A stretch of DNA of 15,764 bases from Octopus sinensis (Eukaryota): assembly GCF_006345805.1 (NCBI RefSeq), contig NW_021825351.1:1-15764 (forward strand), in the 5' to 3' direction. Positions 2,786 to 15,764 of the stretch are shown piece by piece. A program made the position numbers and the translations under genes. How positions within the stretch are numbered: position 1 is the stretch's first letter; each line of letters opens with the position of its first letter. Under the pieces are notes generated by a model that was not told where the DNA came from, ran no database searches, and saw only the letters and a program-made list of their open reading frames with translations.

Positions 2786-3173
2786 TACTCTTTTACTTGT
2801 TTCAGTCATTTGACTGCGGCCATGCTGGAGCACCGCCTTTAGTCAAGCAAATCGACCCCGGGACTTATTCTTTGTAAGCCCAGTACTTATTCTATCGGTC
2901 TCTTTTGCCGAACCGCTAAGTAACGGGGACATAAACACACCAGCATCGGTTGTCAAGCAATGCTAGGGGACAAGCACAGACACACAAACACACACACGCA
3001 TATATAGATATACATATATACGACAGGCTTCTTTCAGTTTCCGTCTACCAAATCCACTCAGAAGGCTTTGGTCGGCCCGAGGCTATAGTAGAAGACATTC
3101 GCCCAGGGTGCCACGCAGTGGGACTGAACCCGGAACCATGTGGTTGGTAAACAAGCTACTTACCACACAGCCA
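2786..3173 (-). mobile_element. Near full-length SINE family A (tRNA head, CORE-like segment, internal (TA/TG)n, distal domain, LINE-like tail)
   Basis: Colinear with 8323-8715; box A/B at the right end; GGCGGTGCTCCAGCATGGCCGCAGTCAAATGACTGAAACAAGTAAAAGA tail at the left end. Confidence 0.92.
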
Positions 3174-3324
3174 TGCGTGTGTGTAGATAAATAGATTGAT
3201 ATACATACATGCATACACTTAAATATATTTATGCGTTGTGTGTATATATATACATAAAGGGGTGGCCTATTAAATTCGGTGCCCTTGCTGAAATATATGA
3301 TGCAAATGTATGTATATGACCCTC

Positions 3325-3527: not shown

Positions 3528-3609
3528 CAGTAGTAGTAGTAGTAGTAGTAGTTGTGATGGTGGTTGTGCCTGCAGCAGCAGTGTTTCGGTGCTCGTTGCC
3601 CTTCATATG

Positions 3610-3646
<37 letters not shown>

Positions 3647-3937
3647 AAGTATGTGTATAGGTATGTATGTGTCGAAACGAATGTATATACAATTGTGTGT
3701 GTATGTGTATAAACAAACACACCCGCACACACACCACATATATATATGTGCACGTACATATAATATTATATATATAATATATAATATAATATATATAATA
3801 TATATATATATATATGCTGCTGATGTACATATACATCTGTTGATACACACACATACATATATATACACATATATATATGCTGGTGTGTGTGTGTGTATAT
3901 ATATATATATATTATATATATACACACATATATATAT
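3325..3937. repeat. Compound microsatellites (TG)n, (GTA)n, (TA)n, (CA)n
   Basis: Directly visible, e.g. (GTA)n at about 3482-3550. Confidence 0.9.
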
Positions 3938-5717: not shown

Positions 5718-5920
5718 GTTAATCCAAACATAAAAACACAAAGAGAAAACACAACAACGCGAGGACGTGGAATAAATATAGTATTATTGGATGCTCAGGA
5801 AAGAAGGAGAGTGTAACGTTTCGAGCGGAGCTCTTCGTCGGAAACATAGGAGAAGGAAAGATCCAGAGAAGGGAAGACAGAGGGAAAAAAATAGTCAAAA
5901 GTACACACGCGGTCACATTT
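5718..5920 (-). mobile_element. Non-autonomous PLE-pLTR-like element with minimal hammerhead-like motif
   Basis: Minus strand CCGACGA-A-GAGC-tcc-GCTC-GAAAC-GTTA (5841-5814); TC-rich leader; 3' end abuts (TA)n; related to 1160-1335. Confidence 0.55.
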
Positions 5921-5928
5921 TGAATATA

Positions 5929-6173
5929 TTCTTTTACTTGTTTCAGTCATTTGACGGCTGCCATGCTGGAGCACCGCCTTTAGTCAAACAAGTCGACATT
6001 AGAACTTATTCTTTATAAGCCTAGTACTTATTGTATTGATCTCTTTAAGGCGAACCGCTATGTTACTGGGACGTAAACACACCAACATCGGTTGTCAAGC
6101 GATTATGGATGGGGGATAAACACAGACACAAATATATACATAAATATGATATATACATCGGGCTATTTCCAGT
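5929..6173 (-). mobile_element. SINE family A, 3' half with a remnant of the head junction
   Basis: cttttacttgtttcagtcatttgacggctgccatgctggagcaccgcctttagtc... matches 2786-3030. Confidence 0.85.
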
Positions 6174-6187
6174 ACTGAACCTTTCAG

Positions 6188-6249
6188 GGCGGTGCTCCAG
6201 GATGGCCGCAGTCAAATGACTGAAACAAGTAAAAGAATAAAAGAAAGAA
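6188..6249 (+). mobile_element. SINE family A tail
   Basis: ggcggtgctccaggatggccgcagtcaaatgactgaaacaagtaaaagaataaaaga. Confidence 0.85.
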
Positions 6250-6267
6250 TATATATATACAAACTGA

Positions 6268-6451
6268 CCATGTTGGAGCACCGCCTTGAAGGGTTTTTTA
6301 GTCGAAGAAATCGACTCTGGGACTTATTCTTTGCAAGCCTAGCTAGTACTTGTTCTACCGGCCTCTTAGGCTTAGCCGCTAAGTTACGGGGACATAAACA
6401 CACCAACACCGGTTTTTAAGCGATGGTAGTGGGGACAAGCATAAACACAAA
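6268..6451 (-). mobile_element. SINE family A, 3' half lacking the extreme tail
   Basis: ccatgttggagcaccgcc...gggacttattctttg...ccgctaagttacggggacataaacacacc matches other copies. Confidence 0.85.
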
Positions 6452-6469
6452 TGCACACATACATAAATA

Positions 6470-6501
<32 letters not shown>

Positions 6502-6565
6502 ATATATATATATATATATATAATGAAAAGAATGGAGTCGAACGAAGATTTTAACAAAATTCCTT

Positions 6566-6652
6566 TACTTTCGACATATGTTTCGAAGACTGCGTATTCT
6601 TAATTCTGAAGGAATGAAGGTTGCATTATCCCGTCTTCTCACCAGGAAATAC
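6566..6652 (-). ncRNA. Type I hammerhead ribozyme motif with one core substitution, inside a ~250-bp element (6523-6770) bounded by (TA)n
   Basis: Minus strand GUAUUUC-CUGGUGA-GAAGAC-(42 nt)-GUCUUC-GAAAC-AUAU-GUC-GAAAGUA. Helix II is 6 bp, helix III is AC/GU within the palindrome ACAUAUGU, helix I is UUUC/GAAA, and the cleavage triplet is GUC. A6 is replaced by G. Confidence 0.7.
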
Positions 6653-6788
6653 AAGGAACCTCTATCAGCCTCGAGACGAACAAAAGCTTCTTACCGTCTG
6701 CCTACATGGTTTCCACAGTGATGTCGATTAACAGAATTATCCATACTAGGATAATTCATTCATCTACTTAAATATATATATATATATG

Positions 6789-6856
6789 CGGCGGGCTTCT
6801 TTCAGTTTCCGTCTACCAAATCCATTTACAAGGATTTGGTCGGCCAGGGGCTATAT
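6789..6856 (-). mobile_element. SINE family A head fragment
   Basis: cgggcttctttcagtttccgtctaccaaatcca...ttggtcggccaggggctata. Confidence 0.8.
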
Positions 6857-6860
6857 ATTA

Positions 6861-6915: not shown

Positions 6916-6957
6916 TTGTCTCCATTTATTTGGTTTTCGGCCAAGAAAGGAAATATT

Positions 6958-7483
6958 AGGATCTTTTCGGTTTGACCGGCAGTTTTTTCTAGCGGTGTCA
7001 TATGAAACTGTCACCCATAATTATGACCCTAGTTTCGATCTATTGCATTTCAATCTATTTTAGGGTTAGGGTTACGGGTGGGGGGAATGGTATCTTTTTT
7101 TTCTTCAGAAATGTAAATAAAAAATTTTAAACTTCGTATACTGGTAGAATGTGTTTATAAAACATCTTTTTCTCTTGGCTTTATTGAGAAAATTCTAGAG
7201 TTTGTAAGATATTTGTTGTTTTTTTTCTTTAATTTCTGCAATTTCAACCAATCACTGACGTCCATTGAGGTAAAAAAAAACATTCTGTGCCGTATGAATA
7301 TGTCCCTCGTTTAAGAAACAGATTGGGTTTATTTACATTTGTGAAGAAAAAAAGATACCCTTCCACCCACCCCTAACCCTAAAACAGATTGAAATGCAAT
7401 AGATCGATACTAGGTCATAATTATGGGTGACAATTTCATATGACACCGCTAGAAATAACTGTCGTTCAAACCGAAAAGATCCT
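6958..7483. mobile_element. MITE/foldback element with ~160-bp terminal inverted repeats
   Basis: AGGATCTTTTCGGTTTGA...AAATGTAAATAAA (6958-7121) pairs with about 7328-7483, ending TCAAACCGAAAAGATCCT; no clear TSD. Confidence 0.85.
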
Positions 7484-7676
7484 CATAATTAACTGATCCT
7501 CGTTGTATGTTTTTTTTTCACCCAAAGCGAAGAACTTGTTAACACCTCCTCTTGAACACACACAAACACACAGACACGCCCGCACACACACACATATATA
7601 CGTAACACATACATACGTAACACATACATATACACATATATACATATATAAACACGCACGCGCGCACAGAGACAAT

Positions 7677-8291: not shown

Positions 8292-8322
<31 letters not shown>

Positions 8323-8715
8323 TACTCTTTTACTCTTTTACTTGTTTCAGTCATTTGACTGCGGCCATGCTGGAGCACCGCCTTTAGTCGAGCAACTCGA
8401 CCCCGGGACTTATTCTTTTTTGTAAGCCCAGTACTTATTCTATCGGTCACTTTTGCCGAACCGCTAGGTAACGGGGACATAAACACACCAGCATCGGTTG
8501 TCAAGCAATGCTAGGAGGACAAACACAGACACACAAACACACACACAAACATATATAGGACAGGCTTCTTTCAGTTTCCGTCTACCAAATCCACTCACAA
8601 GGCTTTGGTCGGCCCGGGGCTATATAGTAGAAGACACTTGCCCAAGATGCCACGCAGTGGGACTGAACCCAGAACCATGTGGTTGGTTAGCAAGCTACTT
8701 ACCACACAGCCACTC
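8323..8715 (-). mobile_element. Near full-length SINE family A
   Basis: Tail, distal domain, (CA/TA)n linker, CCTTGGGCAAG-like CORE segment, box B and box A; colinear with 2786-3173. Confidence 0.92.
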
Positions 8716-10085: not shown

Positions 10086-11128
10086 CGTGGGAGGAGGTGC
10101 TTGAGTCGTGCGGGCCCGGTCAGCCGTTAGAGAACTCACAGGAATCGACCCATGGTAAATTGTGACATGGCTGTTGTTCACAACAGAACATGTGCAACAT
10201 GTCGAAAGGTGTGCCTCTCAGTTGGCAGATTAAAAAGGCATGTAAGAAGGGTTCATACCTATTTCTTTATTACCCACAAGGGGCTAAACATAGAGGGGAC
10301 AAACAAGGACAGACATAGGTATTAAGTCGATTCCATCGACCCCAGTGCGTAACTGGTACTTAATTTATCGACCCCGAAAGGATGAAAGGCGAAGTTGACC
10401 TCGGCGGAATTTGAACTCACAGCGTAACGACAGACGAAATACGGCAACGCATTTCGCCCGGCGTGCTAACGTTTCTGCCAGCTCCCCGCCTTCTTCTAGA
10501 AGGGTTCATATCTATTTCTTTACTACCCACAAGGGGCTAAACACAGAGAGGACAAACAAGGACAGACAAACGAATTAAGTCGATTACATCGACCCCAGTG
10601 CGTAACTGGTACTTAATTTATCGACCCCCCGAAAGGATGAAAGGCGAAGTTACCTCGCGGCGAATTTGAACTCACAGCGTAACGACAGACGAAATACGGC
10701 AACGCATTTCGCCCGGCGTGCTAACGTTTCTGCCAGCTCCCCGCCTTCTTCTAGAAGGGTTCATACCTATTTCTTTACTACCCACAAGGGGCTAAACACA
10801 GAGAGGACAAACAAGGACAGACAAACGAATTAAGTCGATTACATCGACCCCAGTGCGTAACTGGTACTTAATTTATCGACCCCGAAAGGATGAAAGGCGA
10901 AGTCGACCTCGGCGGAATTTGAACTCAGAACGTAACGACAGACGAAATACGGCTACGCATTTCGCCCGGCGTGCTAACGTTTCTGCCAGCTCGCCGCCTT
11001 CTTCTAGAAGGGTTCATACCGTGGCACTTGTTCCTTCTGCCAGCCACCACAGCTATGCATTATGTCATAGAATGAGCAAAACCTTTGCCAGGCTCAAGTC
11101 TAATGCGAGGACCTTGCATCATCAATGA
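10086..11128 (+). pseudogene. Decayed C2H2 zinc-finger region, probably an RTE-type LINE ORF C-terminus, interrupted by the SINE triplet
   Basis: One frame reads RGRRCLSRAGPVSR*RTH...CATCRKVCLSVGRLKRHVRRVHT (10191-10259) and continues after the insertion as VALVPSASHHSYALCHRMSKTFARLKSNARTLHHQ*. The CxxCGRxCxSxxGLxSHxRxH pattern is typical of RTE C-termini. Confidence 0.6.
10245..11020 (-). mobile_element. Tandem triplet of tRNA-derived SINE family B (Meta/MESC-like central domain); units 10245-10497, 10498-10752, 10753-11005; 15-bp TSD
   Basis: AGAAGGGTTCATA(C/T)C at 10245, 10498, 10753 and 11006. Minus-strand head AAGGCGGCGAGCTGGCAGAAACGTTAGC...GAGTTCAAATTCC; central GCCTTTCATCCTTTCGGGGTCGATAAATTAAGTACCAG. 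Confidence 0.9.
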
Positions 11129-11465: not shown

Positions 11466-11865
11466 GGGATCTTTTCACTTTGACCGACAGATTTTAAAAA
11501 TAATTTCTTTCTAACTAAACACTTTTAAACTTCGTATACTGGTAGAATGTGTTTATAAAACATCTTTTTCTCTTGGCGTTCTGGAGAAAATTTAATATAT
11601 AAAAACGAAATATACACCGCCGGAAGTTGTAGTTGACAAGCAACAGCAGTAATTGTATTCACCTCAGCAGACGTCATTGATTGGTTGAAATTGCCGAAAT
11701 ACGAGAAATTTAACAAGAAATAGCTTACAAACTACAGAATTTTCTCAAGAAAGCCAAGAGAAAAGGATGTTTTGTGTGACACATTCTACCGGTATACGAA
11801 GTTTAAAAGTGTTTAGTTACAAAAAAATTATTTTTAAAATCTGCCGGTCAAAGTGAGAAGATCCT
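11466..11865. mobile_element. MITE with ~125-bp terminal inverted repeats, related to 6958-7483
   Basis: GGGATCTTTTCACTTTGACCGACAGATTTT... pairs with ...AAAATCTGCCGGTCAAAGTGAGAAGATCCT. Confidence 0.85.
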
Positions 11866-14398: not shown

Positions 14399-14435
<37 letters not shown>

Positions 14436-14438
14436 AAA

Positions 14439-14687
14439 TATTATTAGAGACAAAACCACTATTTTGCAAAACAAACAAGGAAAGACTTAATCAATACATA
14501 AAATTTTAATAAATAGTCTATTTGACTATTTATTAAAAGTTTATGTATTGATTAAGTCTTTCCTTGTTTGTTTTGCAAAATAGTGGTTTTGTCTCTAATA
14601 ATAGTTTATAATATTTTACTATAAAATGGATTTATATCCTAAATCTGATTTTTTCCCTGTAATTTTGGATTTATTCCCTAATATTTA

Positions 14688-14728: not shown

Positions 14729-14932
14729 CGGAGTAAACACATAAATGTGAAACAAGGTGGAAAAAAGAGTACTCAAAACCAGTGGTAGAGTAATATGCTT
14801 TATTTAAAGCAGCAGAAAATTCAACAAAATCTGTTACTCTGAGTTTCACGTTGCCAGCAAAAACTGTCCGATGAACGGCAACGAGAAACTCAGAGTAACA
14901 GATTTTGTTGAATTTTCTGCTGCTTTAAATAA
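14728..14932 (-). mobile_element. pLTR-like element with a 56-bp inverted duplication and a hammerhead-like motif
   Basis: Arms 14800-14855 and 14877-14932 (one mismatch); CCGATGA-ACG-gcaa-CG(A/T)-GAAAC-TC at 14868-14891; second copy of the 3' end at 8199-8290. Confidence 0.7.
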
Positions 14933-15188
14933 GTATATATATATATATGTGTGTGTGTGTGTGGTGTGTGTGTGTGTGTGTTAAAAAGAACCACGTACCG
15001 TACAAAAGTATATATATATATATTGATTTGAAAACCCCACTTGAATGGGAGAAAGCGCTAATACATGTTCTAAGTTATATGATGTATAAAAACATGTAAT
15101 ATACAAATAAATATCTGTAAATATAAACCATCCGATTTTCTGAGTACCTCATTTCTTCTAATATATATATATATATATATATATAGAA

Positions 15189-15240
15189 GGCGGTGCTCCA
15201 GCATGGCCGCAGTCAAATGACTGAAACAAGTAAAAGAGTA
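15189..15240 (+). mobile_element. SINE family A/LINE tail in (TA)n
   Basis: ggcggtgctccagcatggccgcagtcaaatgactgaaacaagtaaaagagta. Confidence 0.88.
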
Positions 15241-15562
15241 TGTATGTATGTATGTATATATATATATAAACAGCAAATTTTAGATACTTTGCTTGTTATA
15301 ACTTAGAATAACTTCGAAAGGTTTTGGCCAGTATTGGCCCCGGGCCATGTCTAACTTAATAGCATTAATATACATTACCGTGTATATTTATTAAAGTGGT
15401 TTTGAGTTTAAGAATCCCTTTGCGTGTAGCAATAGCCCTTAATAAAATGAAAGTATTTATATATTAAAGGAAAAATTATATATGTTGTATAAATCTTTCC
15501 CCTTAACTATTTTCTTTCGCTGGCTACTTGATAAATTCTTATAAAGATTTTATACTTATATA

Positions 15563-15725
15563 GGCGCAGGAGTGGCTGTGTGGTAAGTCGCTTGCTTACC
15601 AACCACATGGTTCGGGGTTCAGTCCCACTGCGTGGCACCTTGGGCAAATGTCTTCTACTATAGCCTCGGGCCGACCAAAGCCTTGTGAGTGGATTTGGTA
15701 GACGGAAACTGAAAGAAGCCCGTCG
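15563..15725 (+). mobile_element. SINE family A, 5' half (probably continues beyond the window)
   Basis: Box A TGGCTGTGTGG at 15573-15583, box B GGTTCAGTCCC at 15616-15626, then ACCTTGGGCAA (CORE-like). Confidence 0.92.
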
Positions 15726-15764
15726 TATATGTATATATATATATATGTATGTTCATGTATGTTT

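Follow-up and report, generated by a model that had tools for sequence, protein, structure and literature searches.

A hammerhead motif within an inverted Penelope-like element insertion

The window, the whole 15,764-nucleotide stretch of Octopus sinensis DNA analyzed here, contains on its minus strand, at positions 6566..6652, a decayed copy of a type I hammerhead motif, recognized from the sequence, a descriptor and a covariance model. The motif lies inside a 248-bp, doubly truncated and inverted Penelope-like element (PLE) insertion at 6523-6770, a parent retroelement that the initial annotation of this DNA had overlooked. By comparison with paralogues, the insertion consists of a 5'-truncated pLTR arm on the minus strand (6523..6722), which ends at the first fixed 3' end of the family, and an inverted second arm on the plus strand (6724..6770), which comprises the last 47 nt of the tail and ends at the second fixed 3' end. 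It is set in a (TA)n target microsatellite, identified by repeat detection on one side (6459..6522) and from the sequence on the other (6771..6787).

Read from 6652 to 6566, the minus strand gives CUGGUGA, a 6-bp helix II, GAAA, a 2-bp helix III and GUC. The core CUGANGA box, here CUGGUGA with A6 changed to G at 6642, occupies 6639..6645 and is followed by the 5' strand of helix IIa, GAAGAC (6633..6638, alignment columns 30-35), a 42-nt helix II extension (6591..6632, delimited by folding and alignment) and the aligned 3' strand of helix IIa, GUCUUC (6585..6590). The GAAA core segment (6584..6581) leads into the helix III palindrome ACAUAUGU (6574..6581), predicted from alignment and folding to form 2 bp in the monomer and 8 bp in the dimer, and the GUC site (6575-6573) precedes the scissile bond that sequence and hammerhead numbering predict at 6572..6573. 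In the monomer of the window copy, an A-U and a C-G pair, the only two of helix III, close the AUAU loop. The 3' strand of helix I (6555..6572), which carries an invariant bulged U at 6567, pairs with 6646-6660 according to alignment and folding, in four contiguous pairs followed by an A-G mismatch or bulge and then an extension. In this layout, helices I-III, the 42 enclosed nucleotides, the cut between 6573 and 6572 and the G at 6642 are exactly as in the initial annotation.

A relaxed hammerhead descriptor returned 6566-6652 as the sole site in the window and no site in 200 shuffled windows, and a covariance model of the family gives 6551-6667 a score of 113.6 bits, as expected by construction. 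Rfam gave no hammerhead match at E<=10 for either the whole window or one intact paralogue. Two degenerate minimal hammerhead-like motifs with a short helix II, at 5841 and 9497 on the minus strand, both fail the pairing test.

The parent element and its two 3' ends

When used as a genome query, 6523-6770 has at least 72 matches at 88-98% identity (40 scored of 2628 candidates), which split into a part corresponding to 6722-6523 and an inverted part corresponding to 6724-6770, each running into (TA)n. Longer copies carry a single ORF encoding a reverse transcriptase (RT) with RW, DKT, FDISSFYPS and YRDD motifs, plus, at the C-terminus, a GIY-YIG endonuclease (EN) with CxxC..E..N..CxH, for which Pfam returned no RT or GIY-YIG match; the window copy has no ORF. 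Among 20 loci selected by RT, the hammerhead unit is found either downstream of the ORF, in tandem upstream of it, or inverted beside it, at 73-90% identity, and it follows the ORF or precedes it in tandem in 19/20 RT-selected loci besides L031. In L031 the cut site is ~600 nt past the ORF stop, and in L015 and L054 the next ATG comes 255-263 nt after the cut site. The ORF in front of diverged hammerhead subfamilies is the same one, at about 50-80% identity in amino acids, and among the 40 long-loop loci L065-L104 a protein match was found in 16, the others being too truncated or belonging to other lineages.

Arms of the element end at two fixed 3' sites. Of 52 arms, 23 run into (TA)n between +45 and +56, counted from the cut site, and a further 26 do so between +191 and +222; two of the remaining arms continue into the next ORF and one ends near the first site at a short TA run. 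All ten simple two-arm loci have one arm ending at each site, and the window copy matches this pattern, with its long arm at the first site and its 47-nt stub at the second. These ends give a PLE tail of ~150 nt, compared with the tails of 30-40 bp described for PLEs in the available part of PMC8557442. The inversion junctions of two independent insertions, L002 (C1:74278226) and C2:198505685, are almost the same as that of the window copy, a hint of a preferred template-switch point. The family is covered by contigs assembled from presumed-RNA runs; their depth profile has the shape seen in an unlabelled run, and they list no pile-ups of starts or ends.

Placement among Hydra-type PLEs

Hydra PLEs have been defined by a C-terminal EN, RWK and DKT motifs and the absence of CCHH; in addition, CxxC and CxH surround E and N, a CxCX5C linker is present, the hammerheads are canonical and insertion is into (TA)n (Craig et al., 2021; the portion available in PMC8557442). 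The octopus family has the C-terminal EN, DKT (L048, L051, L054) and CxxC..E..N..CxH, and (TA)n, the Hydra-type insertion target, is present at one of the two 3' sites in 49/52 arms. With Hydra-clade PLEs, including Hydra-1_Obim, it shares an RT followed by C-terminal GIY-YIG with DKT and no CCHH, E and N enclosed by CxxC/CxH, a hammerhead close to the 3' end, and (TA)n insertion with 5' truncation and an inverted arm, as far as these are described in that source (PMC8557442). The family differs from the clade in that the RWK position reads RW(L), and an Asn-rich stretch takes the place of CxCX5C, which is present within 60 aa upstream of EN in 0/29 rows (the 29 rows being 27 endonuclease starts, some of them the same copy twice, plus 2 spurious ones). 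Retention of (TA)n targeting after loss of CxCX5C argues against a need for the linker in microsatellite targeting. Domain II measures 53-60 nt in the family, whereas the Hydra entries in file S2 have about 10-26 nt, and by-eye comparison indicates that both the hammerhead and the protein sequence of Hydra-1_Obim differ from those of the family (PMC8557442, same portion).

Among the 71 nearest proteins, DK[TS] occurs in 50, YRDD in 68 and CxC-x4-8-C in 58. The closest proteins in the database, at 25-39% identity, have Hydra-like motifs; judged by motif rather than by a tree, the family appears to work like a Hydra PLE. The Naiad clade was considered and rejected, since Naiad elements have an N-terminal EN and no canonical hammerhead, whereas the family has a C-terminal EN and a full hammerhead. 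The Octopus bimaculoides protein P0046, named 'GATA zinc finger domain-containing protein 14-like', resembles the RT of a related PLE whose linker is Asn-rich, and its name is likely a misannotation. The window also holds, at 283-560 on the minus strand, a degenerate GIY-YIG-like frame (FTCTSSNIIYCVSCSLC) that resembles Neptune-type PLE endonuclease rows and has no Pfam match.

Conservation of the core and of a dimer-forming helix III

The initial annotation had proposed looking for CUGAUGA among the paralogues, and the core proves to be conserved there: a genome pattern with CUGAUGA has 2331 matches (0 for the reversed control), compared with 70 for the G6 form, which is scattered over subfamilies. 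In the closest copies, CUGAUG at positions 3-8 is present in 40/40 other aligned arms. Position 7, the free position, varies across a broader alignment of 42 copies (U in 30/42), and G6 is a 3% minority. The helix III palindrome is present in 42/42 aligned copies, with either AUAU or AUGU with G-U wobbles, and its variant ACAUGUGU keeps pairing through G-U; the conservation of palindrome and core is in part fixed by the search pattern. The earlier proposal that the self-complementary segment permits a dimeric helix III is borne out by a predicted 8-bp duplex of -7.0 kcal/mol and by this conservation.

A double hammerhead is the unconstrained dimer fold of the near-identical paralogue L003 and of 10/42 copies in all, the window copy not among them. 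In none of the 42 copies is the catalytic fold the minimum for the monomer; it lies a median of 3.0 kcal/mol above that minimum, and helix I has a probability >0.5 in only 18/42. The dimer folds of L003 and other copies agree with the dimer model for metazoan PLE hammerheads, as set out in the available parts of the publications (PMC4209133; PMC6765202).

Relative to 2331 intact matches, A6G occurs 70 times, A9G 22 times and A-to-G changes in helix II 10 times, an A6G excess of about 3-4x over background A-to-G that may reflect a hotspot of mutation, editing, or G6 donors having been copied. The idea that A-to-I editing generally causes decay was rejected, as there is no strand bias (A>G 7.8 and T>C 6.7 per 1000).

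A structured extension of helix II

The initial annotation described the 42 nt enclosed by helix IIa as an insertion and a long loop. They are neither a loose loop nor specific to one copy, but a stem-loop extension found across the family, in which folding reveals two additional stems that show compensatory changes from one subfamily to another, the outcome of a check on loop II that the initial annotation had suggested. The long form CUGANGA-(40-70 nt)-GAAACAYRUGUC has 4566 matches in the genome (control 7), compared with 381 (control 4) for the form with 10-39 nt, and is the commonest of this helix III type. The extension consists of stem IIb (5 bp in paralogues), an asymmetric internal loop, a distal stem and a UUC loop, so that helix II is built in three tiers of 6, 5 and about 8 bp. 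In 56 of 79 distinct sequences the extension folds with z < -2 (median -2.7 against shuffles), and in 66 of 79 it closes the helix at the core.

We assembled an alignment (A1) of 42 hand-picked, diverse copies over 125 columns, excluding near-duplicates as well as L090, L094, L095 and L100. In 42/42 copies domain II has a length of 53-60 nt, and the drawn structure pairs 89.9% of cells, compared with 32-46% in slid controls. Two-sided changes were found at 11/28 pairs, in 54 cells versus 20.4 in shuffles (0/500 reaching this); the shuffle control ignores relatedness, which inflates the test, and the structure was drawn from the same sequences. Helices I and II covary across the 42 copies, which upholds the identification as a type I hammerhead; changes that mark subfamilies occur in helix I (18-107, 21-104), in helix IIa (34-85) and inside the extension itself (pairs 40-79, 41-78 and 53-74). 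The distal stem is 72% paired, a value that depends on gap placement. RNAalifold applied to A1 did not predict the drawn structure and returned only a competing UUCGA/UCGAA hairpin, which has no two-sided changes. We infer that the extension is selected as a structure.

Several unpaired positions are also conserved, namely U46 and A49 of the internal loop (41/42 each) and the bulged U of helix I (column 108, 42/42). As to the tertiary contacts that had been suggested for loop II, no conserved Watson-Crick contact joins loop II to the helix I flanks in the 42 copies of A1; the best candidate reaches a minimum of 0.83 over three U-A/U-G pairs, and a conserved pseudoknot from loop II was sought and not found within the 125 columns. 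Holding the extension unpaired changed little (helix IIa probability >0.5 in 25 versus 24 of 42 copies; competing hairpin in 11 versus 6), so that a role as stabilizer of helix IIa is weakly supported at best.

Four further loci (L090:3479-3603, L095:579-707, L094:579-700 and L100:579-692) have the same helix III type and a domain II of 51-66 nt in unrelated sequence, and are possibly independent long-helix-II lineages. Their hammerheads have no ORF link that we could find; L090 scores 31 bits with the family model, and L095 holds two further hammerhead-like motifs at 3547-3727. Short-loop hammerhead families with the same helix III palindrome and a domain II of 13-15 nt were also observed (L056-L064), one of which, L060, weakly matches the end of a Hydra-type endonuclease. 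In metagenome contigs the family pattern had 10 matches, none with a GUC helix III or family sequence, and these were treated as chance.

Decay of the window copy

In the window copy, GAAA and GUC are present and the core departs from the CUGANGA consensus at G6. All three helices can be drawn, as the initial annotation had it, and this much of its claim that they pair stands; the predicted fold, however, is different. The minimum-energy structure is an alternative fold rather than a hammerhead (z -0.29), and the probability of helix II is 0.02, compared with 1.0 in L003, from which the window copy differs at five positions. Private changes at 6630 and 6594 break stem IIb, and the extension folds with a z of only -0.62. 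The private change at 6630 is predicted to be responsible for the misfolding, as the paralogue base at this position raises the modelled helix II probability to 0.87, while restoring A6 alone leaves it at 0.04. The descriptions of this motif as best-formed, and of A6G as its only defect, are therefore not supported, and a failure of the A6-restored RNA to cleave would not refute a ribozyme in the family.

Given A6 in 40/40 other aligned arms and the rarity of G6 across the genome (70 vs 2331), the A6G of the window copy appears to be private decay after insertion. A natural A6C hammerhead variant is described as having low activity, with cleavage <0.1 per min, in the available part of PMC3088659; a rate for a core A6G hammerhead was not found in the literature searched. 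Contigs spanning 6642 and 6630 carry the family alleles instead of those of the window copy, and the insertion at 6523-6770 contains no second, partner hammerhead. With A6G, a predicted misfold and no partner, the window copy is most likely dead.

Comparison with known hammerheads

Hammerheads in Hydra PLE pLTRs are already known, as is a palindromic, dimer-forming helix III in PLE pLTRs. The metazoan PLE and retrozyme hammerheads resemble the family in being type I, with a CUGANGA/GAAA core, a pLTR location, a helix III of 1-2 bp with a palindromic loop, and predicted activity as dimers, and differ from its three tiers in a helix II of 4 bp (canonical) or 6-8 bp (minimal) with a short loop (Cervera and de la Pena, 2014; available part of PMC4209133). 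A 'long' helix II in fungal viruses is 6-8 bp (PMC13725137, as far as available). The spike-moss hammerheads PLE-X1_sMoe and PLE-X1_sTam, marked as non-canonical, are also long in domain II, their loops measuring 35 and 29 nt (that of sMoe capping a 9-bp stem), but they belong to an unrelated PLE lineage with unrelated sequence and have no palindromic 4-nt helix III loop, and the accessible portion of the source, which includes file S2, shows no covariation for them (PMC8557442).

In the CChMVd (-) viroid hammerhead, an extended domain II likewise has an asymmetric internal loop, GU:CGCACA, which contacts hairpin loop 1 in a tested interaction (PMC2632901, available part), whereas the octopus family has an open helix I and a first internal loop that lacks conservation, and no conserved Watson-Crick contact was found in it. 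The Poseidon element PAc of Anolis is alike in having a pLTR hammerhead near the ORF start, an AC-rich tail region and two RT start sites that match the genomic tail; its ORF starts in stem II and its two sites are adjacent, in contrast to an ATG about 260 nt downstream and genomic 3' ends about 150 nt apart in the family. The Poseidon hammerhead is protein-assisted, and its mutants did not block insertion in vitro (available part of PMC11167929).

Neither a three-tier helix II, nor a ~150-nt tail between fixed 3' ends, nor (TA)n targeting without a linker zinc finger was found for the Hydra clade in the literature searched, and the family and its hammerhead were not found there either. Long loop II variants may exist among the dimeric PLE hammerheads of Lunse et al. 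or the Terminons of Arkhipova et al. 2017. The words 'hammerhead' and 'ribozyme' are absent from the octopus repeat annotation in the available portion of PMC13282606. Long-loop hammerheads may be undercounted elsewhere, because Rfam and short-loop descriptors miss them.

Interpretation

On the observed family link, ORF, layout, covariation and private mutations, we consider it very probable that the window motif is a mutated, likely inactive type I hammerhead from the pLTR of a high-copy Hydra-type PLE, inserted in inverted form in (TA)n. Two pLTR hammerheads on one intact tandem transcript would join through the ACAU(A/G)UGU palindrome into a double hammerhead, cutting after GUC about 600 nt past the upstream stop and about 260 nt before the downstream ATG, and this cleavage would trim the element RNA. 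The window locus itself is a dead transposon scrap and the family is of modest importance, yet with its ~150-nt tail it extends the model in which PLE insertion has two start sites, and its conserved extra domain is suited to a clean deletion test of protein-assisted cleavage.

As for what the extension does, our first guess, held at slightly below even confidence, is that it may serve as a binding platform for an element protein via the conserved unpaired U..AC of the internal loop, a suggestion made by analogy with Poseidon, given that no conserved Watson-Crick contact was found between loop II and the helix I flanks and that helix IIa was barely affected. Tertiary docking on helix I is a more doubtful role, plain stabilization slightly more so, and neutral carriage improbable. 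A bolder and rather unlikely version of the platform would have the extension dock the RT-endonuclease and tie cleavage to RNP assembly, in an element with two RT starts 150 nt apart and (TA)n targeting retained after loss of the linker zinc finger that has been proposed to direct it; if true, nature would here offer a hammerhead gated by protein, whose rules could be read from its thousands of genomic variants.

The family motif might instead be vestigial in its catalysis and persist only for a structural or protein-binding role in the PLE RNA. The predicted competing folds are in keeping with this, as are the Poseidon data, in which hammerhead cleavage is dispensable for insertion in vitro and RNA-seq shows no cut ends (PMC11167929, as far as available), and an inverted pair (C11:77133299 and 77133509) with G6 in both arms, which suggests that a G6 template may have been copied. 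However, subfamilies with proteins of no more than about 50-80% identity still share the core, GUC and palindrome, and position 7 varies while G6 stays at 3%, which makes the vestigial reading improbable.

That the window copy works as a fast hammerhead, with its long loop II docked on helix I and perhaps a host function, we regard as very improbable. Beyond its drawable helices, the invariant bulged U of helix I, a G-A opposition after helix IIa in the young subfamily and the viroid precedent for tertiary contact by the internal loop of a long domain II (PMC2632901, available part) would favor it; the G-A opposition is not conserved (A in 19/42), the 42 copies have no conserved pairing of loops with the helix I flanks, and A6G, the predicted misfold, the missing partner motif and the family alleles in contigs over 6642 and 6630 all count against it. 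A non-autonomous retrozyme or SINE, in which a short tandem hammerhead repeat forms circular RNA, is just as remote: most copies are short and retrozymes derive from PLE pLTRs (10.64898/2026.07.22.740005, available part), but the window holds no tandem array of the motif, the copies form a nested series of 5' truncations, with inverted arms, of a single element that bears the ORF, and the non-coding head-to-tail hammerhead repeats of a non-LTR retrozyme were not found.

Other repeats in the window

The PLE insertion, which we read as a decayed Hydra-type copy, is flanked on both sides by fragments of two SINE-like dispersed families, the first at 565-741, 3006-3181, 6776-6860, 8549-8715 and 15560-15738 and the second at 2539-2997, 5926-6481, 8312-8557 and 15187-15271. 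Coverage over 6791-6841 is extremely deep in all runs examined. At 10245-11020 a 253-bp unit is repeated 3.1 times in tandem with 94% matches, and long inverted repeats, possibly MITE-like, occur at 6951-7490, 11467-11864, 14427-14614 and 14800-14932.
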